DNA of 64,000 nt from Solirubrobacterales bacterium (GCA_035318745.1 DATHEA010000005.1:88090-152089), one strand, 5' to 3'; positions 8,637 through 57,968 are shown, counted from the first letter of the stretch. Translations and numbers: made by a program. The notes: generated by a model not told the origin, from the letters alone.

Positions 8637-8642
8637 GCTCGA

Positions 8643-9000
8643 TGGAGGCGGCCGGAATCGAACCGGCGTGTCTGGCCGTAGCGCGAAGGCTTCTACAGGT
8701 TTAGCCGGCGCTTGATTCTCGTCTCCCGGGGTCCGCGCCGGCGGGCACTGCGGGAGATAAAGCCCTCTGAAATGTCCCCTGGCGGACGGGGCGATCCGCC
8801 CGGGTAAGCCCGCAATTGAAGCCGGTGCCCCCCTCCGCGGGCGGGAGAGGGCCGACTCTCACTCACTTAGATCTAACTAAGCAGCGAGGGCGAACTCATG
8901 GTCCGCACGTATTGGTTGGTGCCGGGGTTTAACGAGGCCTCCGGCAACCTCGACCTGCAACCGTTCGCACGGATCGACCAGATCGAAGCCTGTCGCCCCC
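8643..9000 (-). ncRNA. ssrA: tmRNA (transfer-messenger RNA)
   Basis: The minus strand starts GGGGGCGACAGGCTTCGATCTGGTCGATCCGTGCGAACGG and ends GCCGGTTCGATTCCGGCCGCCTCCA (T-arm plus acceptor). The acceptor stem 5-prime GGGGGCG / 3-prime CGCCTCC contains the G3:U alanine identity pair. Internal tag frame GCG GAC CAT GAG TTC GCC CTC GCT GCT TAG (8906-8877) encodes ADHEFALAA*. The 3-prime CCA is not genome-encoded. Confidence 0.93.
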
Positions 9001-9045
9001 GTGCTATGTGACATCGATTGTACGGTGCCGGGTAGGGATGCCCAA

Positions 9046-10422
9046 ATGAGCAAGAAAGAATTCGACGCGATCGTGATCGGCGCCGGCGCGCCGGGCGAGG
9101 TCTGCGCGGGGCGCCTTGCCGACGGCGGGCTCTCGGTGGCGATCGTCGAGAGCCACCTGGTCGGCGGCGAGTGCTCCTATTACGCCTGCATGCCGTCGAA
9201 GGCTCTACTTCGCCCTGGCGAGCTGCTGGCTGAGGTACGCCGTGTACCTGGAATCGCCGCCGCGGTCAGCGGTGACCTCGACCCACAGGCGGTCCTCGAT
9301 CGCCGTGACGAGGTGATCCACGACCTCGACGACTCCGGCCAGTTGCCTTGGCTGGAGGAACGCGACATCGAGCTGTTTCGCGGCGAGGGACGGCTCGACG
9401 GCGAGCGGCAGGTCGTCGTCGGTGAGAAGACGCTGATCGCTCGCCAGGCCGTGGTGGTAGCGACCGGTAGCGGCGCGGCGATGCCGCCCAGCGACGGCCT
9501 CGACTCGGTTCGAACCTGGAACAACCGCGATGCGACGACCTCCAAACTGGTGCCGGAGAGCATGATCGTCCTCGGCGGCGGCCCGGTCGGCTCGGAGCTC
9601 GCTCAAGCATGGTCCACGCTCGGGACCACCGTCACCCTGGTCGAGGGCGAGGATCATCTGCTCCCGCGCGAGGAGCCGTTCGCCGGCGAGCAGGTCGCTG
9701 CCTCGCTGGGGAATTCTTACGGGATCGACGTGCGGACGGGGGTGCTCGCCGAGCGGGTCTCCTCCGGTGGCGCCGGGGTCGTGGTCGAGCTGAACGACGG
9801 CAGCCGCGCAGAGGCGGAGGAGCTCCTGGTAGCGATCGGCCGCGTCCCCCGCACCAAGAAGATCGGCCTCGACTCGGTCGGGGTCGAGCCAGGCGAGCAC
9901 GGCTTCCTCCCAACCGACGAGCGACTTCGGGTGAGAGGCCGCGAGTGGCTCTACGCCGTCGGCGACGTCAACGGTCGCGCCCTCTTCACCCACATGGGCA
10001 AGTACCAAGCCTGGGTTGCGGCCGAGAACGTGCTCGGCCGCAGGGTCGAGTCGATCGCCGAAGACATCGGCTCGCCGCGCGTCACCTTCACCGATCCCCA
10101 GGTCGCGGCCATCGGCAAGACGCTTGCCCAGGCCGAAGAGACAGGAATCGATGCCCGCGGGGTCGACGTCCCCACCGACGGCACGGCCGGTGCCAGCTTC
10201 CAAGGGAAGGAAACGGGAGGAACCTCCCGCCTCGTCATCGACCAAAGCAAGCAGATGATCGTCGGCGCCACCTTCACCGGCTTCGAGACCGCCGACTTTC
10301 TCCACGCAGCAACGATCGCAATCGTGGGAGAAGTGCCCCTCGATCGACTACGCCACGCGGTAGCTGCCTACCCCACGCGCAGCGAGATCTGGCTCAAGCT
10401 GATCGAGCAGTACGAACGCTGA
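9046..10422 (+). CDS. FAD-dependent pyridine nucleotide-disulfide oxidoreductase (class I, lipoamide dehydrogenase/mycothione reductase-like)
   Basis: FAD fold FDAIVIGAGAPGEVCAG, redox dithiol GGECSYYACMPSK, NAD fold VLGGGPVGSELAQ and a C-terminal dimerisation domain. Start set to the ATG at 9046 (MSKKEF); the track ORF from 9001 abuts ssrA. Confidence 0.8.
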   Translation: MSKKEFDAIVIGAGAPGEVCAGRLADGGLSVAIVESHLVGGECSYYACMPSKALLRPGELLAEVRRVPGIAAAVSGDLDPQAVLDRRDEVIHDLDDSGQLPWLEERDIELFRGEGRLDGERQVVVGEKTLIARQAVVVATGSGAAMPPSDGLDSVRTWNNRDATTSKLVPESMIVLGGGPVGSELAQAWSTLGTTVTLVEGEDHLLPREEPFAGEQVAASLGNSYGIDVRTGVLAERVSSGGAGVVVELNDGSRAEAEELLVAIGRVPRTKKIGLDSVGVEPGEHGFLPTDERLRVRGREWLYAVGDVNGRALFTHMGKYQAWVAAENVLGRRVESIAEDIGSPRVTFTDPQVAAIGKTLAQAEETGIDARGVDVPTDGTAGASFQGKETGGTSRLVIDQSKQMIVGATFTGFETADFLHAATIAIVGEVPLDRLRHAVAAYPTRSEIWLKLIEQYER

Positions 10423-10430
10423 ACCGGGCT

Positions 10431-10572
10431 GGGCGACCGCGGTGGTCCTCCGGGGGTGCCTCGCGAAGCGGCGCACCGGCGAGTGATTCTTGCCGCGAAG
10501 CGGCTCCAACATAGTGAGCGGAGCGTCAGCGAAGCGAACCCCGGCACCCACGGGGGACCACCGCGGTCGCCC
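10431..10572 (+). repeat. Family-3 structured palindromic intergenic element, copy 1
   Basis: 30-nt arms 10431-10460 and 10543-10572 are complementary at 27 of 30 positions. The interior has three exact GCGAAGC heptamers (10463-69, 10495-501, 10529-35) and the motif gtgatt-hairpin-tccaacatagt, shared with 40781-40932. Confidence 0.8.
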
Positions 10573-10581
10573 GAACGCTTG

Positions 10582-12189
10582 CTAAACGCGAGAACGCCGC
10601 TTCAGGTCTTCGGCAAACTCGCGCGGCAGGCCGGGAATCTCGTCCAGTTCGTCGATCGACTGAAAACGACCGACTCGCTCGCGGTGCGCAAGCAGGCGAG
10701 TCGCCTGGGTCACGGAGAGCCCCTGGGCCCTGAGCTGCTCGAAGCTGATGTTGTTGAGTTCGATCGTCTCCCCGGTCTGCGCCGCAGAGGGCGGTGCGGG
10801 CTGGGGCGGCATCGGTGGACCCGGCTGCGGCTCGGGCTGTGGTGGCGCCGGCGGCGGGCCGGGCTGGTCCGGCGCGGGCGGCGGAGGCTCAGGAGTCGGT
10901 GGTTGAGGCGTGGGCGCCGGAGGCGGTTGCGGGGTGTCCAACTGCGGTGAGCGCTCCGGCGGAGGTTCTGGAGGCAGGGGCTGGGGATTCAGCGAGGCGG
11001 CTTCTCCACCATGCACGGAACCGAGCACGGCCCGCTCCGCTGCTTCGGCCCGGCGCTCCGCCTCGCGGGCGCGCTCCTCGGCCTGGGCGACGCTTTCCTC
11101 GATCTCACGCAGGCGCTGCCGGCGCTCCTCCTCCTGCGATTTCAGCTGCGCAAGGCGCTCGGCCTCCGCTGCACGCCGTTCCGCGGCTTTGGTGCGCTCC
11201 TCGATCTGGCGCAGGCGCTCTTGCGCTTCGGCGAGCGAGCGCTCCTGCGCTTCGCGTCCCTGCTGCAGACGCTGTTCGGCCGTCTGAAGGTCGGGCGCCG
11301 GCGCGGCAGGGGGCGGGGGCGCAGCCATGCTCTGCGTCGTCTGCCCGGTCTCGGCTTGCGCCCGCCGTGCCTCGGCCTCACGCTGAAGTCGCTCCGCCTC
11401 CTCGATGCGCCGATCCGCCTCGGAGCGGATCCGCTCCTCCTCGCGCTGGATTTCGGCGACCTTGTCGTGAACGCGCTGTTCGGCCACGGCCGGGTCGTAT
11501 CCCCCTGGCGTGAGCGGCGGTGCGCCCGGTGGCGCCTGCGAAGGCACGGGGGGCGGCGACTGTGGCTGCGGTACCGCGGCAGGCGGAGGTACAGGCGGAG
11601 GTACGGCTTGCACGGCGGGTGGTGGAACGACCTGAGGCTGCGGCTGGGCAAACGGCTGGGCCGGCGGAGCCGGCGGCGGTTGAGCGGTAGCTGCGCTCTC
11701 CTGCTCGTACCGCGCCCGCTCCTGCGCGGCGCGAGCCGCGGCGAGCTCCCGCTCGGCCTTCGCCGCCTCTTTCTTGCCGCGACGCCCGGTGCGGCTGCCC
11801 CGACCCGGCTTGCCGCGACGCCCGGCTCGTTTCCTCGCCCGCTCTTCGCGGCGCCGCTTCGCTTCTTCCTGGCTGCGCTTGCGATGCTCGGCGCGAGCGG
11901 AACGTTGCTGCAGGCGAGCCTGCTTGCGCTTCTCCTTGGCGCTCAGCGGCTTGCCCGAGGGCGGCGGTGGCGCCGCGGTAGGGGGAGCGCCCGTTTGTCC
12001 CGCCTGCGGTTGGGCCGACTGTGGCGCCAAAGGCGGCGGTGGGGGCGATGCCGGCTTGCCGGCATCGCTTTTCTTATGCTGGTCCTTGCTGCGCCGCTGG
12101 ACGATGCTGATCACGAGCAGCAAGAGCAGGATCGCCACCACCAGCCCGGCGACGAAGTATTGGACGTTGTCGCTCACGAAGTCAGCCAT
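10582..12189 (-). CDS. membrane-anchored Pro/Ala-rich coiled-coil protein with C-terminal helix-hairpin-helix (ComEA-like) domain
   Basis: N-terminal TM helix FVAGLVVAILLLLLVISIV. Basic and proline-rich low-complexity tracts. Charged heptad-like repeats (AERRAAEAERLAQ, EERAREAERRAEAAERA). C-terminus LNNISFEQLRAQGLSVTQATRLLAHRERVGRFQSIDELDEIPGL resembles an HhH DNA-binding module. Confidence 0.6.
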   Translation of the reverse strand: MADFVSDNVQYFVAGLVVAILLLLLVISIVQRRSKDQHKKSDAGKPASPPPPPLAPQSAQPQAGQTGAPPTAAPPPPSGKPLSAKEKRKQARLQQRSARAEHRKRSQEEAKRRREERARKRAGRRGKPGRGSRTGRRGKKEAAKAERELAAARAAQERARYEQESAATAQPPPAPPAQPFAQPQPQVVPPPAVQAVPPPVPPPAAVPQPQSPPPVPSQAPPGAPPLTPGGYDPAVAEQRVHDKVAEIQREEERIRSEADRRIEEAERLQREAEARRAQAETGQTTQSMAAPPPPAAPAPDLQTAEQRLQQGREAQERSLAEAQERLRQIEERTKAAERRAAEAERLAQLKSQEEERRQRLREIEESVAQAEERAREAERRAEAAERAVLGSVHGGEAASLNPQPLPPEPPPERSPQLDTPQPPPAPTPQPPTPEPPPPAPDQPGPPPAPPQPEPQPGPPMPPQPAPPSAAQTGETIELNNISFEQLRAQGLSVTQATRLLAHRERVGRFQSIDELDEIPGLPREFAEDLKRRSRV

Positions 12190-48247: not shown

Positions 48248-49504
48248 TTAGCGGTCTGGTTCGACTGCCTCGAACTCACCCGTCTCCGGATCGATCGCGG
48301 GGAAGCTGCCGGTCTCCAGCTCGCGGGCAACGGCGAGGTCGACCTGCTCGGCCTGCGGGACCGGTCGGCCGGCATCGCGGCGCACGCTGACGAGCTGGCG
48401 CAGCCGCATGTGGCGCAGGTTGAGGATCTCGAGCACCTCGACCAGGTAGACGCTCGCCCCGAGAGCGAACAGGCCGAAGGCGATCATCACCGCGGTCCAG
48501 AAGGGGTCGAAGTGGCCGTGGTCGTCGCTGTAGGGGACGAAGCGCAAGGCCAGCGCGACGGCGGCCATGACGAAGGTCCAGCCATAGAGGTAGGCGAGCG
48601 TGCGCCGCTGCGAGAAGCCGATGTCGGCCATGCGGTGGTGGAAGTGCCAGCGGTCGGCACGGTAGATCGGGCGGCGGTATTTGAGCCGCTTGGCGACGAC
48701 GAAGCCGGTATCGAGGATCGGCACGGTGAGGATGATCAGCGGCAGGAACAGGGCAATTACGGCGTTGGTCTTCAGTGCTCCCTGCACAGCGACGACGCCC
48801 AGCAGGAAGCCGAGCAGGTTGGAGCCGGTGTCCCCCATGAAGGTCTTGGCCGGCGGGAAGCCGTGGCGGAGGAAGCCGAGCGAGGCGCCGGCGGTGAGCG
48901 CGGCGAGGATGCCGGCGGCGTTGCGCTCCAGCGAAAGGGCGATCACGGCAAGCGCGACCCCGGAGATGACGCAGACCCCCGCGGCGAGCCCGTCGACGCC
49001 GTCGATCAGGTTGATCACGTTGATCACAGCGACGATGCCGATCACGGTGCCGACGTCGCCGAGTGAGATCGTGCCGCCGCCGGGCAGGCCGAGCAGGTCT
49101 ACGGAGCCCGGGTTGAGCTGGCCGAGGAAGGGGAAGGTGAAGCTTTCGACCGTGACGCCGGCAGTGACCGGGATCACAACGGCGACCGTTTGCCCGAGGA
49201 GCTTGGTCGCCGCGCCGAGGTCGTAGATGTCGTCGAGGACGCCGATCGCCGTGATTGCTGCTGCGCCGATGAGGATCGCCCGCGTCTCGGCGTCCCAGGG
49301 CAGCCAGATCAGGGCAGAGACCAGGACCCCGGCAAAGATCGCCAGACCGCCCAGTTTCGGCGTCGGCACTTCGTGCAGCGAGCGCACGCCGGGAAGGTCG
49401 ATCGCCCCGGCGCGACGGGCGAGGCGGATCGTGGCAGGCACCAGAAGCAGGGTCAGGATCCCCGCGACGAGGAAGGCGAGGAGGGCTTCGACCGACGCCG
49501 GCAT
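48248..49504 (-). CDS. wecA: polyprenyl-phosphate N-acetylhexosamine-1-phosphate transferase (MraY/WecA family)
   Basis: Polytopic, with DDxxD-like VLDDIYDL, NLIDGVDGL and MGDTGSN motifs. It sits directly upstream of the atp operon, as Rv1302 (rfe) does in M. tuberculosis. Confidence 0.88.
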   Translation of the reverse strand: MPASVEALLAFLVAGILTLLLVPATIRLARRAGAIDLPGVRSLHEVPTPKLGGLAIFAGVLVSALIWLPWDAETRAILIGAAAITAIGVLDDIYDLGAATKLLGQTVAVVIPVTAGVTVESFTFPFLGQLNPGSVDLLGLPGGGTISLGDVGTVIGIVAVINVINLIDGVDGLAAGVCVISGVALAVIALSLERNAAGILAALTAGASLGFLRHGFPPAKTFMGDTGSNLLGFLLGVVAVQGALKTNAVIALFLPLIILTVPILDTGFVVAKRLKYRRPIYRADRWHFHHRMADIGFSQRRTLAYLYGWTFVMAAVALALRFVPYSDDHGHFDPFWTAVMIAFGLFALGASVYLVEVLEILNLRHMRLRQLVSVRRDAGRPVPQAEQVDLAVARELETGSFPAIDPETGEFEAVEPDR

Positions 49505-49513
49505 CGATCCAGG

Positions 49514-51379
49514 CTAGTTCGCGCACCTGTCGAACCAGAGCGTGAAGGCGATCAATCCCCAGAGCTGACGGCTGAGGTCCTCGCGGCCGGCGCAGTGGCG
49601 GTCGAGCAGTGCGGTGACGGTTGCGGGGTCGAGCCAACCCTGTCGCGACAAGGTCTCCGCCGAGAGCGTTTCGCGCGCGAATCCCTGCAGGGGCCCGCGC
49701 AGCCAGGCGGCCACCGGGATCGAAAACCCCTGCTTCGGCCCGCGCAGAACCTCCTTCGGCAGCAGCGGCGCCAGAGCGCTTCGCAGCAGCCGCTTCTTGG
49801 CGAGCCCGCGCACCTTGAGCGGCGTCGCCAGCCCGAGAGCCATCGTCGCCACCTCGTTGTCGAGGAAGGGAACGCGCAGCTCCAGCGAGTGCGCCATGCT
49901 CGAGCGGTCGGTCTTGACCAGCAGGTCGTCGACCAGGTAGATGCCGAGGTCGACGTCTTGGAGGCGGGCAAGCGGCTCAGCCCCCGCGGTCTCGGCATAG
50001 CGCTCGCGGTAGACGTCGACCGGGTCCCAGCCCGGATCGCGATCGCCCAGCAGCGAGGCCTGAAGCTGCCGCGAGAAGATCTCCTTCCAGGCGTGGTGGC
50101 GCTCCAGCGGCGGCAGCCCCGCGCCCCGCGCGAAGCGCTTCGCTTTGTAGTCGAGGCTGACCTTGGAATCGGAGCTGGGCAGCATCTCGGCGAGCGGCGC
50201 GGCGAGGGCGGCGAGACGGCCGACTCGCGGCGCCAGCAGGTCCGCGACGTAGGTGTAGTAGCCGCCGAAGAGCTCGTCGCCCCCCTCCCCCGAGAGGGCG
50301 ACCTTGACCTCGCCCGCGGCCAGCTCGGAGACGAGGTAGGTCGGCAGGGCCGAGGAGTCGCCGAAGGGCTCGTCGAAGGCCTCGACCAGCTTCGGGAAGA
50401 GCTCGACTGCGTCGGGGCGCAGGACGATCTCGTGGTGGTCGGTGCCGTAGCGCTCGGCCACCAGCCGCGCACGGTCGAGCTCGTCGAAGCTCGCCTCCTC
50501 GAAGCCGACGGAGAAGGTCTTCACCGGGTCGGCCTGCTCGCCGGCGGCGAGGGCGACGATCCCGGCCGAGTCGACGCCGCCGGAGAGCAGCACGCCGACC
50601 GGGACGTCGGCGACGAGGTGAGCCCGGATCGAGTCGCGCAGGGTCTCGCGCAGCTCGTCGGCCAAGGCGCTTTCCGGCCTGCGCCTGGTCTCCCCCGCGG
50701 CGACCGGAGACGGCCTGGCGTAACGCGTCTGCGTCAGCTCGCCGTCCCGCCAGACCGCCAGCGTTCCGGCGGGCAGCTTGCGCGCCTCGGCGAAGATCGT
50801 CAGCGGTGCCGGAATCGAATTGAAGGCGAGGTAGGCGGCGACGGCCTGGGGATCGATCTGGCGCGAGAAGCCGGGCTGCTCCAGCATCGCCTTCAACTCG
50901 GAGGCGAACGACAAGGTGCCCGCGGCGAGCCGGTAGTAGAGCGGCTTGATCCCGAAACGGTCGCGGGCCAGAAGGAGGTGGTGCGAGCGCGAGTCCCAGA
51001 GCGCGATCGCGAACATCCCACGCAGGAGCTCGACGAAGCCGTCGCCGTGCTCCTCGTAGAGATGGACCAGAACCTCGGTATCCGAATCGGTTGCGAAACG
51101 GTGGCCGCGCCGCTCCAGCTCGCCGCGCAGCTCGCGGTAGTTGTAGATCTCGCCGTTCTGAACGACGGTGACAGTGCCGTCCTCGTTGGAGATCGGCTGG
51201 TCGCCATGCTCGAGGTCGATGATCGAGAGCCGCCGCATCGCCAGCGCGACCCCTCCTTCGTGGAACAGACCGTCGCTGTCCGGCCCGCGGTGCGTCAGCC
51301 GCGAGTTCATCGCCCTGACCGCATCGACGTCCGCAACCGCACCCCGCTCAGCCATGGCCACTCCACAGATCCCACACAT
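49514..51379 (-). CDS. asnB: asparagine synthase (glutamine-hydrolysing) family amidotransferase
   Basis: N-terminal nucleophile MCGICG, Ntn glutaminase domain and PP-loop LSGGVDSA. 621 aa. Confidence 0.9.
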   Translation of the reverse strand: MCGICGVAMAERGAVADVDAVRAMNSRLTHRGPDSDGLFHEGGVALAMRRLSIIDLEHGDQPISNEDGTVTVVQNGEIYNYRELRGELERRGHRFATDSDTEVLVHLYEEHGDGFVELLRGMFAIALWDSRSHHLLLARDRFGIKPLYYRLAAGTLSFASELKAMLEQPGFSRQIDPQAVAAYLAFNSIPAPLTIFAEARKLPAGTLAVWRDGELTQTRYARPSPVAAGETRRRPESALADELRETLRDSIRAHLVADVPVGVLLSGGVDSAGIVALAAGEQADPVKTFSVGFEEASFDELDRARLVAERYGTDHHEIVLRPDAVELFPKLVEAFDEPFGDSSALPTYLVSELAAGEVKVALSGEGGDELFGGYYTYVADLLAPRVGRLAALAAPLAEMLPSSDSKVSLDYKAKRFARGAGLPPLERHHAWKEIFSRQLQASLLGDRDPGWDPVDVYRERYAETAGAEPLARLQDVDLGIYLVDDLLVKTDRSSMAHSLELRVPFLDNEVATMALGLATPLKVRGLAKKRLLRSALAPLLPKEVLRGPKQGFSIPVAAWLRGPLQGFARETLSAETLSRQGWLDPATVTALLDRHCAGREDLSRQLWGLIAFTLWFDRCAN

Positions 51380-51397
51380 GGCCGCGCAGTCTCGCAG

Positions 51398-51447
51398 GAC
51401 GTGCCGGTGCTGCGAGGTCCATATGGACCTCGCAGCACCGGCACGTC
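51398..51447. repeat. perfect 50-nt palindrome (candidate inter-cistronic hairpin/terminator)
   Basis: gacgtgccggtgctgcgaggtccatatggacctcgcagcaccggcacgtc is its own reverse complement. It lies between the sugar transferase stop (overlapping it by 2 nt) and the asnB start (51379). No U-tract on either side. Confidence 0.9.
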
Positions 51448-52255
51448 AGCCGGGGGCGGCGGGGCCGCGGCCCAGGACCTTGACCACGGTGGCCAGGAGG
51501 ACGCTGATGTAGAGCGGCACGGAGCGGTCGGCGATGTACTCCATGTCGTGGGCGAGCTTGTCGGCCCAGGACTCCTCGCGGGTCATCCGCGTCTGGGCGA
51601 AGCCGGTGACGCCCGGGCGAACCACCAGCCGCTGCCAGTACTGCGGGATCTCGCGGCAGAGCTCGGTGAAGAAGGCCGGGCGGATCGGCCGCGGCCCGAC
51701 CACCGCCATGTCTCCTCGCAGGACGTTCCACAGCTGCGGTACCTCGTCGAGATGGACCTTCCGCAGCACCCGTCCGATGCGCGTCACCTCTTCTTCGGTG
51801 CGCCGGGTGAGCTCCTCCCCCAGGTACGGGCCAAGGCGGTCCTCGGCATCCGGCTTCAGGGTGCGGAACTTGTACATGCGGAAGAGCCGCCCGCCTCTGC
51901 CCACGCGGGCACCGTGGTAGAAGAGCGGCCGGCCCGAGGTGAGCACGATCGCCAGCGCGGTCAGCGCCAGAAGCGGCGCCAGAATCAACAAAAAGGAAAA
52001 TGAAATAAAGATGTCCAGGCCCCTGAGGAGAGAATCTACTGAGCGCCTCTCACCATCGCCGGCGAGCGCGATGAAGTGCTCCAGCTCGGCCTGGACGTCG
52101 GCGGGCAGGGTTGGTGCCGTGTCAGGCAACGTTCGCCTTCTCTGGCTTGCCCTCGCCGCGCCTGGCGGCGTCCTCGACCACTCGACGTGGCTCTGCCACG
52201 CCTTCGGGTCTGCGTCCTTGCCAGGCACGACGATGACTGCGCCAGAACCGGGCAA
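51446..52255 (-). CDS. monotopic phosphoglycosyl (bacterial sugar) transferase
   Basis: LILAPLLALTALAIVLTSGRPLFY...MYKFRTL...DEVPQLWNVLRGDMAVVGPRP matches the Bac_transf domain pattern. The exact start is uncertain. Confidence 0.85.
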   Translation of the reverse strand: MPGSGAVIVVPGKDADPKAWQSHVEWSRTPPGAARASQRRRTLPDTAPTLPADVQAELEHFIALAGDGERRSVDSLLRGLDIFISFSFLLILAPLLALTALAIVLTSGRPLFYHGARVGRGGRLFRMYKFRTLKPDAEDRLGPYLGEELTRRTEEEVTRIGRVLRKVHLDEVPQLWNVLRGDMAVVGPRPIRPAFFTELCREIPQYWQRLVVRPGVTGFAQTRMTREESWADKLAHDMEYIADRSVPLYISVLLATVVKVLGRGPAAPG

Positions 52256-52281
52256 ACGTCACCGGACACGGCACTAGGGAT

Positions 52282-53322
52282 TCAGCTCGAGATGTGGCTT
52301 GCCGCGGGATGGTCGGCTCCGACGGTACCTAGAATGGTCTCGACCAGCAGACCAGGGTCTCGCCTGATCGGAGTCGCGTCCGCAGTCCGTTTCTCGAGCT
52401 GAATCGCGCGCGGGTCGGTCAGCGGCCGCAACCGTCCCGACCTGATCAGCGCTTCGTCGACGCCGCCGAGGCGCCCGCCGTAGGTCGTGTAGACGGGCGT
52501 GCCCAGCGCCGCCGCCTCGCGGTTCATCGTTCCCCCGGCGGAGACGACGAGGTCCGCGAGCGCCACCAGGCTCTGCGCCTCGACGGCGCCGGGTGGCAGG
52601 ATCAGCGACGGCAGCGCGAGGCTCTCGACCAGCTCGCGCTGCGCCTGGGTGCGGGGCAGGACGATCGCGTGCACGTTCTCGTCGGTGCCGAGCCGTTGCA
52701 GGACTTTCGGGAAGAGCGGGTTCGACTTGCGGTGGTAGAGCGAGACGTCGGGGGGCGGCCGCACGACCACGACGACGCGCCCGGTGTCGACCGAGAGGCG
52801 CTCGAGCGAATCGGGGTCCGGCTCGAAGTCATAGAGGTAGTACTCCTCCTTCAGCCCCGGATAGGGGAAGAGCTTCTCGGGCCCGACGCCGAAGCGGCGC
52901 AAGCGCTCGGCGGGCACCGTGTCGGGGAACATCACCCGCTTGGCGAGCCGGCAGCCGATCCGGTGCTGGGTGACCGCGTACTCGTAGTCGTGCATGTTGG
53001 TCTCGGGAATGCCGAGCAGGCGCGCCGCGATCGCCAGGTCGTTGGAGCCATGGGCGAGGGCGAGGTCGAAGGAGCGGCCGCGGCCGAAGCGGATCATCGC
53101 CGTGGTGCGAGCGCCGAGCCGCAGCGCCTTGCGTACCCGCGAGGCGCCGCCGTGGCGGCCGATCGGCGTGTGCTCCATCCCGTGCAGCTCGAGCAGCGCC
53201 TGCGTCTGAGCGTAGTCGCGCGAGGTGACCTCGACCTTGTGACCCTGGGCGCGGAGACGCTCGATGATCGGACGCAGAACAAGCACATGCGCCGGCGCGC
53301 TCATGTCGACCCATATGTTCAT
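52282..53322 (-). CDS. DUF354 family protein (GT-B/epimerase-like fold)
   Basis: From the ATG at 53322, MNIWVDMSAPAHVLVLRPIIERLRAQGHKVEVTSRDYAQTQALLELHG is the typical DUF354 N-terminus. Confidence 0.65.
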   Translation of the reverse strand: MNIWVDMSAPAHVLVLRPIIERLRAQGHKVEVTSRDYAQTQALLELHGMEHTPIGRHGGASRVRKALRLGARTTAMIRFGRGRSFDLALAHGSNDLAIAARLLGIPETNMHDYEYAVTQHRIGCRLAKRVMFPDTVPAERLRRFGVGPEKLFPYPGLKEEYYLYDFEPDPDSLERLSVDTGRVVVVVRPPPDVSLYHRKSNPLFPKVLQRLGTDENVHAIVLPRTQAQRELVESLALPSLILPPGAVEAQSLVALADLVVSAGGTMNREAAALGTPVYTTYGGRLGGVDEALIRSGRLRPLTDPRAIQLEKRTADATPIRRDPGLLVETILGTVGADHPAASHISS

Positions 53323-53423
53323 CGGCAGACCATAGTGCTCGGTGGAGTGAACACCCACGGTCGACTGAGAGGTCGGCACTCCGCTATTGGGAGTCGGGTG
53401 AGCGGTCTGCTATAGGTCACGCG

Positions 53424-53984
53424 ATGGCGATGAACCTCTTCGCAACCGGCATAGTGCTCGGGATCGTCATCTCCGTGCCGCCGGGCCCCAATGCCGCCCT
53501 GTGCATCGACCTGGCCCGCGGCGGCGTGCGGCGGGCCATACCGCTGATCACCGGGGCCGCCCTGACGGATGCCGCGTACTCCCTGCTCGCAGCATCGGGG
53601 GTCTTGATCGCGGGCCGAGCGAGTTCTAGTGCCCTCGCCGTCCTCGCCCCATGCTTCCTACTCGGCACCGCGATCCTGTTCTGGTCGCCGGCCTCGATCT
53701 CCCCCAAGGCGGCGGTTGGCATCGCCCTGCTGAACCCGGCCACCGCAGCTATCTGGCTGAGCCTCTCCTCCACCCCGGCCCTGCGGGCCATCTCGACTCC
53801 CGACCTCTTGATACGCCCACTGCCGGTCGCGCTTGGCACCGCCGCATGGTTCACCCTGCTCGCGGTCGTGTCCGCCAAGCTCAGCTTTCGCCTCACCCCG
53901 CAACTCACCGCAAACCTACGGAAACTGCTGGCCGTGTCACTTGCCGTGCTCGGCCTGGTCAGCCTGGGACCCATCCTCTTCTGA
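53424..53984 (+). CDS. LysE/RhtB-type amino-acid exporter family protein (short)
   Basis: 186 aa with about 5-6 TM helices. N-terminus GIVLGIVISVPPGPNAALCI resembles the LysE superfamily motif. It overlaps the convergent 53937..55823 gene by 48 nt. Confidence 0.55.
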   Translation: MAMNLFATGIVLGIVISVPPGPNAALCIDLARGGVRRAIPLITGAALTDAAYSLLAASGVLIAGRASSSALAVLAPCFLLGTAILFWSPASISPKAAVGIALLNPATAAIWLSLSSTPALRAISTPDLLIRPLPVALGTAAWFTLLAVVSAKLSFRLTPQLTANLRKLLAVSLAVLGLVSLGPILF

Positions 53985-55823
53985 TGGCTCAGATTGTCCC
54001 GCGCAGTGCGGGGTGGTTACGACCTTGACGTCTTTGAGGTCGTCGAATTCCCGCCGCACCGCAAAGCAGGCCTCACTTGCCCTCAACCGACCGGCCTCGG
54101 TGTTGGCAAACAACAGGCCGCAGACGGTACCGGTATGCCCGACGTTGACCCCAAGAGCGCCGAACTCATCGAGTCGATCGCTCAGGTTGCAGCAATAGGG
54201 ACTGAGGAGAAACCGTTCATTGAGCCCCGCCGATCTCGTCGACTGCGCGGCGAAGTTGGCCAGCGACCGCTCGGAAATCGCCCGGTCCATGTTTTCCAAG
54301 AGAACCTCGTACTCCGTAGCGAGCTGCTCTTGGCCGGCGAAGCCGATCGACTGAGTGTCGACGCTGTCGTGGGGCACGAGCATCACGATCACGAACTCCG
54401 GGTACCAATCCCAGGCTTTGACGAGCTCGCAGGTCTTGTGGTTGACGGCGGCGATACCCGGATACATCGAGCCATCGGATGACTCCACCCTTGCCGCGAG
54501 CGCCCCCTCCTCGGCAACATCGAGACGCTCCCCAGCCGCATTCGCGACGGCGCGGATGCCGGAAAGGACGTCGGCGGTGCTGGAGCCCATGCCCTTGCCG
54601 ATGTCGATGTCGCTCCAGTGGCGGATCGTCACCTCGGTCGGCCCAAGATCCAGTCTCTCAACGGTGTACTCGATCGCGAGACCCAGCTTGCGATGGTGCT
54701 CGCTCAGGCCGATCACCGACAGCTCGCGGGCGGGTCGAAGCTTCGCCACCACATTTGCACTCTTATTGATCGGACAGGTCACGTGGAACGGGGTGCCGTC
54801 CGGCAAGATGCCCTGGATGAACTCCCCACAGGTGCCGGGCGCGGTGCCCTGGCCCTCCCGGGCGCCGGGACGCTTCGTCCGTGTCCCTGCGGTGCTAATG
54901 CCACCGGGCTTCGCGCTCGAATCGCCTGGCCGTACACCCATCGCCGGGGGGAGCCCGTTGCGCAGATCCCAGAAAGGGCTGTGGATCGACCAGCCCTCGG
55001 GCGCGGGGTCAAGGATGTAGGAGGTCGCGGTCGTGGCCGCCCAATCCTCCGCCCAGCGCTCGGTCACCGACATCGCCGCGACGACTTCCTCCTCGAACAA
55101 CACGCCCCGCTCCTCTCCGCATACCAGATGAACGAAATCTCCGGCCTCGCTGCGCAAGAGGAGGGTAATGGTCCCAACCGGATGCGCCAGGATGGAATCC
55201 GCGACAGCGCTGTGGGTGAGCAGCTCGACGATGGCATCGTGGAGCAGCGGGCCCATAACGTTCCAGTAGTGCTCGTTGCCGGTTGGCCAAGGGTCGCGGC
55301 CGGAGTGCACGACCCTGTTGCGATAGGCGATCAGGCGCTGCCAGGCCTCCCACCAATCCAGCCGGTCCCCCTCTTCTCCGAGACCATCCTTGACGTAGTG
55401 GGAAACGTCGATCGCCGCCGAAGAGGCCCCCGGGCTCAGACCAGCAACGGCGGCATCGAGAGCGCCGACCGCTGCCGCGAACCGCCGCACGTCGTCGAGC
55501 TGCGCAGCAGAAAGGCCATCGACCCGCGGAACGAGCGGATCCGGCATGGCCTTGGCACTGACTCTGAACAGATCCAGGACGCGGCCCATGGTAAGGGGCT
55601 TGTTCCGCGACTTCTCGATCAGGGACTCGACGTTCCCGACCAGCTCGGTACAGCGGGTTCGGTAGTCCGAGAGCGAGAGAGACGCCAGATAACCGAGAGC
55701 CGCCTCGGCGAAGTCGAGCAATCCCTTGTGCCTGCTGCTCCAGTCCCGCGCACGCACTGCGTCGCCGTAGGCATTGCGCAACTCCGGCGGAAAATCGCGG
55801 TACAACAATCGATTCGGCTGCAT
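53937..55823 (-). CDS. fusion protein: unknown N-terminal domain with RNxxxH (HEPN-like) motif plus C-terminal PduX-like GHMP kinase
   Basis: Residues ~326-628 carry GTAPGTCGEFIQG (PduX-type N-terminal motif) and GHMP motif II GKGMGSSTADV. Residues 1-~300 match no family I can name but contain LIAYRNRVVHSG (R168-H173, nt 55305-55322). The linker is Gly/Pro/Ser/Arg-rich. Confidence 0.7.
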   Translation of the reverse strand: MQPNRLLYRDFPPELRNAYGDAVRARDWSSRHKGLLDFAEAALGYLASLSLSDYRTRCTELVGNVESLIEKSRNKPLTMGRVLDLFRVSAKAMPDPLVPRVDGLSAAQLDDVRRFAAAVGALDAAVAGLSPGASSAAIDVSHYVKDGLGEEGDRLDWWEAWQRLIAYRNRVVHSGRDPWPTGNEHYWNVMGPLLHDAIVELLTHSAVADSILAHPVGTITLLLRSEAGDFVHLVCGEERGVLFEEEVVAAMSVTERWAEDWAATTATSYILDPAPEGWSIHSPFWDLRNGLPPAMGVRPGDSSAKPGGISTAGTRTKRPGAREGQGTAPGTCGEFIQGILPDGTPFHVTCPINKSANVVAKLRPARELSVIGLSEHHRKLGLAIEYTVERLDLGPTEVTIRHWSDIDIGKGMGSSTADVLSGIRAVANAAGERLDVAEEGALAARVESSDGSMYPGIAAVNHKTCELVKAWDWYPEFVIVMLVPHDSVDTQSIGFAGQEQLATEYEVLLENMDRAISERSLANFAAQSTRSAGLNERFLLSPYCCNLSDRLDEFGALGVNVGHTGTVCGLLFANTEAGRLRASEACFAVRREFDDLKDVKVVTTPHCAGQSEPSEEDGSQADQAEHGK

Positions 55824-55857
55824 CGGGTGCCCTAAAGGATGCCTAGGGCGAGGGCGA

Positions 55858-57123
55858 TTAGACTGCTTCGTTGCTCACCGTGCGGCATCCCGGTGCCGGA
55901 TATCGGCTCATCAGGTCATGGACCTCGGCTCGCACCCGCTCGGCAACCGAACCGTCAGCCGGTGCGGATACGACCTCATCCATCCAATCGGCCACCTGAC
56001 TCATGTGCTCCTCCCCAAGCCCTCTGGTGGTAGCGGCGGGCGTGCCGATCCTGACTCCCGACGGGTCCAGCGGTTTGCGCGGATCGAAGGGGATCGAGTT
56101 GGCGTTGGAGACGATCCCGGCGCGGGACAGCGCGCTCGCCGCCTCCTTGCCGCTCAAGCCCTTGGCGGTCATGTCGAGCAGGATCAGGTGATTGTCGGTG
56201 CCGCCTGAGACGAGGCTGAACCCCCTCTCGATCAGAGCCTCCGCCAGCACCTGGGCGCTGGCGACAACCGCCTGGGCATAGTCGCTGAACTCCGGCGCCA
56301 GTGCCTCGCCGAGCGTGGCTGCGATTGCAGCGGTCTGATGCTGGTGCGGCCCGCCCTGGAGTCCCGGAAAGACTGCTCGGTCGATTGCCTTGGCATGCTC
56401 CTCGCGACAAAGCAGGATCGCGCCCCTCGGTCCCCGCAGCGTCTTGTGCGTAGTCGTCATCACGATGTCGGCGTGTGGGATTGGAGAAGGATGAGCCCCG
56501 CCCGCAATCAGGCCGGCGATGTGGGAGACGTCGGCAGCCATCAGGGCTCCGACCTCATGGGCTATCTCGGCAAAGCCGGCGAAATCGATCGTGCGCGGGA
56601 CCGCCGTCCCCCCACAGAACAGGAGCTTCGGCCGCCGATCGAGAGCCAGATCGCGAACGGCGTCCATGTCGACCCGGCCACTGTCACGCTCGACGCCATA
56701 GTGAACCGCGTCGAACCAGATCCCCGTAGCCGAAACCCGCCAGCCGTGGGTTAGATGACCGCCGGCTGGCAGGGAAAGACCCATGACCGTATCCCCCGGC
56801 TGGAGGAAGGCGAGGTAGATGGCAAGGTTCGCCGGTGACCCCGAGTAGGGCTGGACGTTGGCGTGCTCGGCACCGAAGAGCTCCTTTGCGCGGGATACCG
56901 CCAGTCGCTCAACCTCGTCGATCACCTCGTTGCCCTCGTAGTAGCGGCGGCCGGGATAGCCCTCCGAGTACTTGTTGACCAATACCGAGCCATTCGCTTC
57001 GAGCACCGCGGTCGAGCAGTAGTTCTCCGAGGGGATCAGGCAGAGCGAATTTGCCTGCCGCTCATCCTCTCTGCGAAGAAGCTCGGCGAGCTCAGGGTCG
57101 GTGAAATCGATTGCGTCGCTCAC
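55858..57123 (-). CDS. glyA: serine hydroxymethyltransferase
   Basis: 421 aa. GYPGRRYYEG, PLP-lysine region TTTHKTLRGPRG and GGPHQH. Confidence 0.95.
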   Translation of the reverse strand: MSDAIDFTDPELAELLRREDERQANSLCLIPSENYCSTAVLEANGSVLVNKYSEGYPGRRYYEGNEVIDEVERLAVSRAKELFGAEHANVQPYSGSPANLAIYLAFLQPGDTVMGLSLPAGGHLTHGWRVSATGIWFDAVHYGVERDSGRVDMDAVRDLALDRRPKLLFCGGTAVPRTIDFAGFAEIAHEVGALMAADVSHIAGLIAGGAHPSPIPHADIVMTTTHKTLRGPRGAILLCREEHAKAIDRAVFPGLQGGPHQHQTAAIAATLGEALAPEFSDYAQAVVASAQVLAEALIERGFSLVSGGTDNHLILLDMTAKGLSGKEAASALSRAGIVSNANSIPFDPRKPLDPSGVRIGTPAATTRGLGEEHMSQVADWMDEVVSAPADGSVAERVRAEVHDLMSRYPAPGCRTVSNEAV

Positions 57124-57206
57124 TATGGCCGATGCTACCAGCGCAAGTCAGGCGGATTTCCCAGCGGTGGCCGGATCGAGGCCCCCTCGGCGAGAGAGAT
57201 AGCCTG

Positions 57207-57968
57207 ATGGCGGTGAAGGCTCGCTCGACGCTGGCAATCGCCACCCTCCTCTTGCTCGCAGCACCGGCCGCTTCGGCGGCGCCGACCAACCCCTGCGAAG
57301 GCCCCGAAGCTCGCCATCTGCTCTGCCCCGATCTGAGGATCGGCAAGCCGAGCGAAATTTACGTCTCGAGCTACGGCGGCAGGGTCCTGTTGCGGGCGAC
57401 GAGCGACGTTATGAGCCGCGGCACGGGCCCGATGGAGCTGCGCGGCCACCGCGATGGCTGGCACACGATGCGGGTCAACCAGCGGATCCACCGCAAGGGC
57501 GGCGGCCGCCTCGTCGTCAGGACCGCTGCCACCCTGCACTTCACCGACGTCGGCACGTACTTCGGCGGCAGCTACTGGAAGGTGCACCAGCTTGCCCTGT
57601 TCGAGCTGCGCCGGGTCGGGCCGGACGGCAAGAACGGGCCGGTCATCCGCACCGGGCCCAAGCTCAACTACTGCCTGCGCGATCTCGAGCGCACCCGCCC
57701 CGGCAAGCGCTCGCCCAGCGTCCGTCACTACCCCGGTTGCGACCAGGACCCCTACACCGACGCGGTCACGCTCGGCACCTCGGTCGGCTGGTCGGACATC
57801 TACCCGGCCGATTACGACAAGCAATGGATAGACGTCAGCGGCCTGCGCGGCTGCTTCGTCTTCACGATGACCGTCGACCCCAAGGAGTTGCTCTTCGAGT
57901 CGAACGAGCACGACAACACCTCACACCGCCTAGTCCGACTCCCCTACCGCGGTCAACCGGGCTGCTAG
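57207..57968 (+). CDS. secreted lysyl-oxidase-like domain protein
   Basis: Signal peptide MAVKARSTLAIATLLLLAAPAASA. By-eye alignment to the animal LOX catalytic domain: PDL...RVLLRxxxxVxxxGTG, GPKLNYCLRD (LOX GHKASFCLED) and GWSDIYPADYDKQWIDVSGL...VDPKELLFESNEHDN (LOX [20 protein letters not shown]...VNPSYLVPESDYTNN). Confidence 0.6.
   Translation: MAVKARSTLAIATLLLLAAPAASAAPTNPCEGPEARHLLCPDLRIGKPSEIYVSSYGGRVLLRATSDVMSRGTGPMELRGHRDGWHTMRVNQRIHRKGGGRLVVRTAATLHFTDVGTYFGGSYWKVHQLALFELRRVGPDGKNGPVIRTGPKLNYCLRDLERTRPGKRSPSVRHYPGCDQDPYTDAVTLGTSVGWSDIYPADYDKQWIDVSGLRGCFVFTMTVDPKELLFESNEHDNTSHRLVRLPYRGQPGC

Follow-up and report, generated by a model that had tools for sequence, protein, structure and literature searches.

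Gene and protein layout

In a 64,000-nt stretch of an assembly of a soil actinobacterium, Solirubrobacterales bacterium (GCA_035318745.1, DATHEA010000005.1:88090-152089; hereafter the window), one open reading frame (ORF) on the minus strand joins two modules whose combination seems not to have been described before: an N-terminal, largely helical module (N-module), probably a divergent HEPN domain, and a C-terminal GHMP small-molecule kinase. The features of this gene and of its neighbours are presented in Table 1. A preliminary description of the window had delimited the ORF at 53937-55823, and these boundaries were recovered for a 628-aa product whose start codon position is matched by the N-termini of the homologues in the alignment. 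The peptides quoted in that description were also located, with LIAYRNRVVHSG within residues 163-175 and the two kinase peptides GTCGEFIQG and GKGMGSSTADV at the residues given in Table 1.

More than 120 clusters of full-length homologues, with 33-81% identity to the window protein, were found; nearly all of them are metagenomic, and the named sources are Solirubrobacterales, Pseudonocardiaceae or unclassified Actinomycetota. Carriers of the gene include the complete metagenome-assembled chromosomes OY970339.1, OY970313.1 and OY969118.1. The family alignment comprised 26 members, reaching down to 33% identity, and the invariant positions given below refer to it. The full-length AlphaFold2 (AF2) model had a mean predicted local distance difference test score (pLDDT) of 84.8 and a predicted template modelling score (pTM) of 0.78, a value that, despite the disordered linker, is compatible with fixed packing of both halves and with nothing more specific. 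Short matches in which the kinase domain was missing (P0082, P0083, P0088-P0090 and P0116) were considered as standalone N-domains and rejected as truncated or frameshifted copies.

Table 1 Location of the fused gene, its domains and motifs, its neighbours and the Unk loci of related genomes
Feature	Coordinates	Strand	Basis or remark
Whole ORF: N-module, linker and GHMP kinase; 628 aa, ATG start	53937..55823	-	ORF list, homologue alignment
All-alpha HEPN-like domain (probable), residues 5-213	55185..55811	-	AF2 model, profile search
D53-Y54-R-T-R57, acidic residue and near-invariant Tyr at the end of helix 28-57	55653..55667	-	Superfamily alignment
R168-N169-R-V-V-H173, putative HEPN catalytic motif (Rx4H)	55305..55322	-	Alignment, AF2 model
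Small beta domain, residues 216-284, five strands, fold unassigned	54972..55178	-	AF2 secondary structure
Pro/Gly/Ser/Thr-rich disordered linker, residues 298-318	54870..54932	-	pLDDT <50 in full-length model; variable in alignment
GHMP kinase domain, residues 322-607	54003..54860	-	Pfam GHMP_kinases_N, Foldseek
GTCGEFIQG, PduX-type CGE..QG motif, residues 330-338	54810..54836	-	Alignment
GKGMGSSTADV, GHMP motif II (phosphate-binding loop), residues 409-419	54567..54599	-	Alignment
ESSDG, acidic segment of kinase	54471..54485	-	Alignment
GHTGTV, GHMP motif III	54123..54140	-	Alignment
Spacer between glyA and the fused gene, 34 nt	55824..55857	-	AGGG Shine-Dalgarno-like element 6 nt before ATG
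glyA, serine hydroxymethyltransferase (SHMT)	55858..57123	-	NCBIfam SHMT, E=1e-168
LysE-type membrane protein, convergent	53424..53984	+	Pfam LysE, weak; overlaps 3' end of the fused gene by 48 nt
Unk loci outside the window	L086:2583-3848, L087:1660-2997, L085:1982-3283, L083:13130-14263, L088:453-1823

The C-terminal half is an intact GHMP kinase

The C-terminal module is a small-molecule kinase of the GHMP class and the PduX/homoserine-kinase type, with all of its motifs intact. Pfam GHMP_kinases_N (PF00288) matched this half at E=1e-8 (35.7 bits, cut-off 22.3), and GHMP_kinases_C matched the window protein below threshold (E=0.057). In NCBIfam the thrB, mevalonate kinase and similar models were all matched far below threshold, the best of them being thrB (E=1e-5, 24.5 bits against an equivalog cut-off of 168 bits). 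Residues 322-607 of the AF2 model form a standard GHMP fold with pLDDT mostly 80-97, to which Foldseek placed homoserine kinase 4p52 nearest (E=5e-11), followed by IspE, ForT and mevalonate kinase; for homoserine kinase, IspE and mevalonate kinase the probability was 1.00, with target template modelling (TM) scores of 0.6-0.67.

The sequence motifs of the kinase are well kept throughout the family. In the CGE..QG motif C332 is invariant and G330, T331, G333, E334, Q337 and G338 are conserved at 90% or above; G409 to D418 of motif II are invariant save G413 (at least 90%); E447, S448, S449, D450 and G451 of the acidic segment are all invariant, D450 being, by analogy with PduX mutagenesis, the putative catalytic base; and H563, T564, G565 and T566 of motif III are invariant as well. 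The active site is identically kept in clades with and without a decarboxylase neighbour (see below).

A pattern search with GTCGEFIQG also recovered relatives consisting of the kinase alone, which share 30-48% identity with this half and come from Bacillota, Dehalococcoidia, Caulobacter, Aureimonas and others. Most of these kinase-only relatives in other phyla are adjoined by an aminotransferase-class gene of the CobD type, and the pairing of PduX with CobD is the classical arrangement of the aminopropanol-phosphate branch of cobamide synthesis. The Joint Genome Institute (JGI) product name on homologues is 'L-threonine kinase'. The preliminary description had recognised a PduX-like GHMP kinase here, and Pfam, the JGI name, the homoserine kinase fold and the CobD-side relatives all support it; the PduX-type label itself is a putative one, drawn from the CGE..QG motif, the JGI name and the CobD-side relatives.

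Three plasmid matches (H1, H4 and H5, on Kitasatospora and Streptomyces megaplasmids) are likewise kinase-only relatives, with 33-36% identity and the annotation 'kinase'; the H1 match overlaps a feature annotated 'lyase family protein', and these megaplasmid kinases may lie in secondary-metabolite clusters. One homologue, P0114 (874 aa), is an artefactual fusion of the kinase with a downstream CobD-like gene, apparently via frameshifts, and it gave the first pointer to the decarboxylase partnership of the kinase.

The N-module represents a large superfamily outside Pfam

Residues 1-300 matched no family in Pfam, NCBIfam or PADLOC, in agreement with the preliminary description, which had left the N-terminal ~300 aa outside any nameable family. 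In the PADLOC-DB v2 scan of the protein the only match was a weak one to the candidate model PDC-M09A (E=0.0028, residues 48-134). An AF2 model of residues 1-300 based on a 20-sequence alignment (pLDDT 90.4, pTM 0.89) contains ten helices between residues 5 and 213, followed by a five-stranded beta domain at 216-284. The helices are arranged as a long helix 28-57, a helical insert at ~58-156, and helices 157-172 and 186-213, of which the part 186-202 comes after the motif described next. Foldseek gave no fold match for the beta domain, a region also covered by the profile in the nearest STAND-fused and ROK-fused relatives.

The R-N-x-x-x-H pattern that had been pointed out earlier is present in the peptide RLIAYRNRVVHSG (residues 163-175), and its R, N and H are invariant in the 26 family members. 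In the AF2 model, helix 157-172 ends in R168 and N169, and H173 is the first residue of the loop. Y167, R168, N169, H173, W179 and P180 are among the invariant columns of the N-terminal half; distant family members carry RNRSEGH (Rx5H), as opposed to RNRVVH (Rx4H) in the window.

An exhaustive profile search with the family N-domain among 1.84 billion representative proteins revealed 285 matches at E<=1e-3, of which 120 were at E<=1e-10. In most of them the helical part is N-terminal, and the host proteins are 500-1500 aa long. Among the 243 sequences covering the motif, R is kept in 241, N in 242 and H in 242, a conservation far beyond chance. Other well-kept positions are Y54 (219/243), G80 (224/243), E66 (208/243, or 217/243 when E and D are counted together) and E/D40 (205/243). 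D or E occupies position 53 in 194 of the 243 sequences, with K or R at +4 in 124, and the D53-Y54-R-T-R57 segment thereby resembles, as far as sequence goes, the Ex3[KR] element of HEPN helix-2. The N-module is thus a large domain superfamily outside Pfam, marked by a near-universal R-N-x3-4-H motif, and with at least 285 representative clusters it would merit a family definition of its own.

The partners to which the module is fused are diverse. They include STAND NTPases (AAA_16 or NB-ARC with TPR, e.g., P0124, P0131 and P0239), among which P0124 and P0131 are the nearest non-GHMP relatives of the N-module; ROK kinases (P0142 and P0153); type IIG restriction-methyltransferases (PADLOC E=3e-154); an SNF2 helicase with NOV_C (P0182), matching the Hachiman HmaA model at E=0; HSDR_N or MmeI_N (HSDR_N in P0163); F5/8-type-C domains (P0180, P0186, P0204 and P0210); HEAT repeats; and PEGA with FGE-sulfatase (P0205). 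The gene for the ROK-fused P0153 (L092:11096-12918) has a Vsr endonuclease and a DNA cytosine methylase at a distance of ~1 kb, surroundings that are typical of mobile or restriction-modification regions.

Is the N-module a HEPN domain?

These data raise the question of whether the module belongs to the HEPN superfamily, as proposed in the preliminary description, or whether an R-N-x3-H motif arose convergently at a helix end in a new all-alpha fold with an unrelated activity, an alternative that we regard as unlikely. HEPN ribonucleases (RNases) are defined by an Rx4-6H motif in which a polar residue (N, D or H) follows the R and which is placed at the end of a helix and the start of the following loop, with a helical insert before the motif helix and a second conserved acidic residue upstream, typically as Ex3[KR] in helix-2 (PMC3710099). 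The window motif R168-N169-x3-H173 is an Rx4H with a polar residue, N, after the R, and the motif placement in the AF2 model also fits the published definition; the order of the helices with the pre-motif insert and the upstream acidic residues in the alignment appear to be compatible with it. R168 and H173 are conserved among the homologues, which leaves the HEPN proposal unrefuted on this point.

In a scan of 30 isolated N-domains against the complete set of 24,736 Pfam models, run at a lenient threshold, matches by more than one N-domain were confined to HEPN_RiboL-PSP (four members), HEPN_Apea (two) and HEPN_MAE_28990 (two). The E-values were 4.6e-5, 0.0017 and 0.0079 for matches to HEPN_RiboL-PSP, 0.009 and 0.053 for HEPN_Apea and 0.059 for HEPN_MAE_28990; Abi_2 (E=0.059) and the KEN domain model Ribonuc_2-5A (E=0.092) were matched once each. 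All of these scores are below gathering, and all of the matches fall over the R-N...H region, most of them mainly in the motif-proximal half; the best HEPN_RiboL-PSP match, though, spans 128 residues and covers profile positions 25-176 of 191, which is beyond the motif. The superfamily members concerned tie to the window family profile at E=1e-14 to 1e-17.

Several results weigh against HEPN membership. The N-domain of the window protein itself matches no HEPN model even at E<=5, so that the suggested link is a transitive one, made through relatives whose HEPN matches are every one below the Pfam gathering score. In full-length Pfam scans of 29 superfamily proteins the HEPN matches vanish and are seen only with the N-domain alone, which cautions against over-reading those to HEPN_RiboL-PSP. 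Large-database searches with the superfamily profile and with the P0196 N-domain returned five family members only and two unannotated proteins, respectively, and no annotated HEPN bridge in either case. PDB sequence-profile searches with the family and superfamily alignments gave only noise, and Foldseek comparison of the N-module with PDB and BFVD retrieved no HEPN structure (best E=0.04, TM ~0.15) and no other known fold.

The empty Foldseek result, the sub-gathering scores concentrated near the motif and the presence of about ten helices, far above the minimal four-helix HEPN core, speak for a fold unrelated to HEPN. Foldseek may, however, lack sensitivity for small, divergent helical bundles. 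Convergence would also have to explain why five HEPN-type families were matched, why HEPN families alone were matched by more than one member, and why the motif position and the polar residue agree with the definition and the insert and the acidic residues appear to do so. From the sub-threshold matches and the motif placement, set against the missing fold match, we conclude that membership of the N-module in the HEPN superfamily is likely, although short of proof. The earlier proposal is plausible on the invariant motif, its placement and the weak matches to five families.

Genomic context

Within Solirubrobacterales, glyA lies immediately upstream of the fused gene on the same strand at all fused loci (L001-L005, L010, L011, L084, L098 and the window), and this adjacency persists where the wider neighbourhood differs. 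Of the seven fused Solirubrobacterales genome loci, five have a convergent LysE homologue downstream, as do L009 and L098. The window gene stands within a conserved housekeeping block, prfA-prmC-sua5-glyA ... wecA-atp. There is no terminator-like site in the spacer at 55824..55857, and a promoter/terminator pattern scan of 53300-57400, a kind of scan that is uninformative for high-GC actinobacteria, found nothing; we infer that the gene is co-transcribed with glyA. The neighbours named in the preliminary description, glyA 34 nt upstream and a LysE/RhtB-type exporter on which the gene converges, were both confirmed, the latter as a LysE-type ORF with a 48-nt 3' overlap. The remark that cobalamin genes are absent nearby held as well: no CobD-like gene was found anywhere in the 64-kb window, and no cobalamin-related Pfam family was called within ~10 kb of the gene.

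The arrangement is different in other clades. In distant ones (L083/L006, L007, L008 and L085), the fused gene overlaps a downstream ~340-aa aminotransferase-class gene, for which the best NCBIfam match in L083 and L085 is TIGR01140, CobD threonine-phosphate decarboxylase (7e-63 and 1.5e-49, respectively, both below the equivalog cut-off). This CobD-like gene overlaps or directly follows the fused gene in L083, L085 and L087 and follows it closely in L086. The intermediate clade (L086 and L087) presents SHMT, a gene that we refer to as Unk, the fused kinase and the CobD-like enzyme in one row. The glyA adjacency and this cassette strengthen the Ser/Gly/Thr theme put forward in the preliminary description for a regulated amino-acid kinase.

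Unk is a conserved membrane protein family of ~380-456 aa (~380-430 aa in the distant clades) with the motifs SIYLDALLLG and FRNVFWW and two C-terminal hydrophobic helices; it has no match in Pfam, NCBIfam or PDB. A CorA-like C-terminus was considered and is unsupported, as a PDB profile search with the Unk alignment gave noise. In all clades except that of the window, Unk adjoins the fused kinase, and it is also the upstream neighbour of the ROK-fused paralogue P0142 (L088; blastp 4e-26 to 7e-24), which indicates that the pairing of Unk with the N-module is independent of the kinase fold. It is not a universal partner of the N-module, being absent beside P0124 (STAND) and P0153 (ROK) and in the window clade; neither Unk nor the CobD-like gene occurs in the window or in those regions of its clade that were searched. 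At gathering thresholds, Rfam identified no riboswitch close to the operon or the cassettes, nor any other RNA element. No cobalamin genes were recognisable beside the kinase-only relatives in Solirubrobacteraceae, where ORF picks in high-GC DNA may be wrong.

In L024 (Caulobacter sp. KR2-114, ~8691-11900), a kinase-only PduX-like gene and a CobD-like aminotransferase have as their divergent neighbour an SHMT-like gene with 43% identity to the window glyA; the trio of SHMT, kinase and decarboxylase therefore recurs outside Actinomycetota.

Composition and evolution of the gene

Another important question is whether the gene is of foreign origin, as the preliminary description had suggested from two low-GC lines. 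The two lines (54181-54240 and 54721-54780) are indeed low, with 56.7% and 58.3% G+C, but values as low occur in 8.2% of the window's 60-nt lines, and the gene as a whole (64.6% G+C, with 0.79 G+C at third codon positions, GC3) matches glyA (65.1%, GC3 0.78). Relative to the window mean of 67.7% (standard deviation 1.9 for gene-sized windows) the gene lies 1.7 standard deviations below, and by codon-usage distance it ranks 17th of 38 long genes, glyA being 11th. No relatives of the N-domain were found in IMG/VR viral contigs, PLSDB plasmids or GenBank phages, collections in which the kinase half alone does find relatives. On G+C, GC3, codon-usage rank and this absence, foreign origin was rejected.

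Within Solirubrobacterales, identity to the window protein is 38-55% for the N-terminal half vs 71-76% for the kinase half. In a Solirubrobacterales metagenome-assembled genome (L009:9660-10900) the order glyA, kinase, LysE is kept, the whole N-domain is deleted and the gene starts in the linker; its kinase carries a 2-nt frameshift after 'CPI', and this copy may be a decaying pseudogene or an assembly error. The presence pattern, the divergence of L098 (both given below) and the loss in L009 indicate that the gene is chromosomal, vertically inherited within its sub-lineage, fast-evolving and dispensable. It is not a recently acquired mobile defence gene. An 'empty site' comparison with L095 and L096 proved unusable, since glyA lies there in unrelated neighbourhoods and neither insertion nor deletion can be demonstrated.

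Proposed function and alternative explanations

The reading that we put forward, tentatively and as somewhat short of an even chance, is that the gene, co-transcribed with glyA, encodes a stable chromosomal enzyme of two modules, an active hydroxy-amino-acid kinase and, coupled to it, a HEPN module that acts on RNA. The kinase would phosphorylate the hydroxyl of L-threonine or of a close beta-hydroxy amino acid such as L-serine, and in the sister clades the phosphorylated product would be passed on to the neighbouring CobD-like phospho-amino-acid decarboxylase. The N-module would be a divergent HEPN domain that binds or cleaves RNA via R168, N169 and H173. Dimerisation is usual among GHMP kinases, and HEPN RNases require that two motifs be brought together. 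The most speculative step is that the two halves might be coupled in the manner known from Ire1 and RNase L: the kinase half, dimerising in response to ligand or ATP, would assemble a composite HEPN site and so switch the RNase half, tying Ser/Gly/Thr status to RNA turnover.

Apart from the doubts about HEPN membership discussed above, other observations tell against a two-module enzyme of this kind. The CobD-like partner scores below the equivalog cut-off (213 vs 290.55 bits) and does not occur in the window; the adjacency to glyA may reflect synteny by descent and not a functional link; and coupling of the Ire1 type would be an analogy only. The gene is also patchy: of three metagenome contigs on which glyA has at least 75% identity and is followed by at least 2 kb, one carries it, and of 41 contigs with glyA at 60-75% identity none does. 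Between the syntenic L098 and the window, identity is 52% for the gene and 84-85% for glyA and prfA. Such patchiness and fast divergence are more typical of accessory or conflict genes.

An alternative explanation, which we consider doubtful, is that the protein is a conflict or stress effector in which the HEPN module acts as an RNase toxin and the kinase half either senses a small molecule or produces or removes a metabolite that is toxic or serves as a signal; the pyridoxal phosphate (PLP) enzymes and Unk of the sister clades would belong to the same system, and the window copy would be reduced, having lost Unk and the decarboxylase. The same N-module heads STAND NTPases (the nearest non-GHMP relatives among them), type IIG restriction-methyltransferases, the HmaA-matching SNF2 helicase and HSDR_N proteins, it occurs next to Unk when fused to a ROK kinase and next to Vsr and a DNA methylase in P0153, it evolves faster than the kinase half, and the gene is patchily present among close relatives. 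However, the native composition and codon usage, the housekeeping block, the lack of phage, plasmid or viral copies of the N-domain and the lack of a meaningful PADLOC match for the protein all speak against such a role; an antitoxin-like partner is not evident, and the partner genes are metabolic PLP enzymes, like those of the classical PduX-CobD pair. In the literature searched, as the preliminary description had remarked, no defence system with a GHMP kinase is described. Homologues are consistently located beside threonine-phosphate-type enzymes and are native in composition, an outcome that the preliminary description had named as refuting a foreign conflict gene; the context points to metabolism.

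A purely metabolic role, in our view equally questionable, would make the protein the lineage's L-threonine (or serine) kinase for making the precursor aminopropanol-phosphate or a related amino-alcohol-phosphate, with the N-module as a non-nucleolytic accessory for oligomerisation, ligand or nucleotide binding or allostery, its R-N-H residues binding a small molecule. The pairing of the kinase with a CobD-like enzyme mirrors the canonical pathway, the active site is the same with and without a decarboxylase neighbour, the gene is placed in the apparent glyA operon, and HEPN domains fused to nucleotidyltransferases are regarded as potential substrate-binding domains (PMC3710099). Non-catalytic HEPN domains, though, have lost the Rx4-6H motif (PMC3710099), which is invariant here, and a ligand related to threonine would not make sense for the copies of the module on restriction enzymes, helicases and STAND NTPases. 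In L009 the N-domain is deleted and the kinase persists in an unchanged context, but its frameshift and possible decay as a pseudogene mean that this locus does not demonstrate a kinase functioning by itself. Cobalamin genes were found neither beside the window gene nor beside kinase-only relatives of the same order.

Of the two possibilities raised in the preliminary description, the regulated amino-acid kinase is strengthened in its theme by the genomic context, and the single-polypeptide conflict or stress effector is kept alive by the STAND, restriction and helicase partners of the N-module. In a broader view, which we hold to be improbable, the N-module would be a new HEPN clade serving as a portable RNase effector or sensor head. 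In Actinomycetota it would form, with Unk, a core of two genes not recognised before, in which the N-module protein carries a kinase of the GHMP or the ROK fold and which is often flanked by SHMT and a CobD-like enzyme; this would be a metabolite-gated RNA-cleaving stress or immunity system, and the window copy would be a reduced form in the glyA operon. In such a system phosphorylation, or mere binding, of an amino acid or sugar would switch the HEPN nuclease.

Relation to known systems and significance

Both parts of the protein are of known kinds; what is new is their combination, together with the four-gene cassette and the size of the unclassified clade. To our knowledge, if the N-module is active, there is no earlier case of a GHMP-class small-molecule kinase and an RNase in one bacterial polypeptide, and no joint mention of HEPN and GHMP kinase was found in the literature searched. 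Compared with PduX of Salmonella enterica, the window protein shares the GHMP fold and motifs, the N-terminal CGE..QG and relatives, fused ones among them, located directly beside homologues of the CobD-like threonine-phosphate decarboxylase, whereas it has an extra N-terminal module of ~320 aa, its gene follows glyA with no CobD, cob or pdu genes nearby, and the CobD-like partner in the sister clades is below the equivalog cut-off. ThrB provides the closest solved fold (4p52) and the best NCBIfam match, but identity in the structural alignment is 15%, the thrB score is far below the cut-off, and the window protein has the PduX-type N-terminal motif.

In Ire1 and RNase L, nucleotide binding and dimerisation of the kinase domain assemble the RNase. 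These proteins carry a HEPN-type RNase and a nucleotide-binding kinase on one polypeptide (PMC3710099), and one superfamily member weakly matches Ribonuc_2-5A over the motif region; they differ in being eukaryotic, in having a protein kinase or pseudokinase rather than a GHMP kinase, and in their reversed domain order. With HEPN RNases in general, the N-module shares the Rx4H motif (Rx5H in distant members), the N after R, the motif position at the helix end and loop start and, among superfamily members, fusion to restriction-modification, helicase and STAND modules. It differs in the N-domain being approximately twice the minimal HEPN size, in the beta domain that follows it, and in its GHMP and ROK kinase fusions, which are absent from the HEPN survey (PMC3710099). 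Reuse of a PduX-type kinase in another pathway is exemplified by DabA, which is described in PMC10906522 as a PduX-like L-threonine kinase of the dabABC monobactam precursor operon, outside cobalamin biosynthesis; DabA, in that account, belongs to proteobacterial secondary metabolism.

If the N-module is an active HEPN RNase, the protein would represent, in a prokaryote, the kinase-plus-KEN logic known from Ire1 and RNase L, here wired to amino-acid metabolism, and a large HEPN clade of at least 285 representative clusters, above no curated threshold in Pfam, NCBIfam or PADLOC, would be added; if it is only a regulatory appendage, the gain in annotation would be modest. In many cobamide producers, the L-threonine kinase step of the biosynthetic pathway is missing or has no gene assigned to it. 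The lineage-specific fused kinase and the cassette of SHMT, kinase and CobD-like enzyme offer a concrete candidate for this step.

Other features of the window

Between sua5 and glyA, on the opposite strand, the window contains a gene (57111-57968, plus strand) whose product of ~250-285 aa has a hydrophobic segment at its N-terminus and weakly matches Pfam Lysyl_oxidase; the gene is kept at the same position in L098 with 67% identity. On the other side, genes at 48248-53379 (minus strand) for DUF354, a Bac_transf sugar transferase and an asparagine-synthase-like protein separate the glyA, kinase and LysE group from the wecA-like GT4 gene preceding the atp operon; in the same interval of L098, only DUF354 and the GT4 gene were found. 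An unrelated tmRNA gene (Rfam RF00023, 133.6 bits) is located at 8640-9000 on the minus strand.

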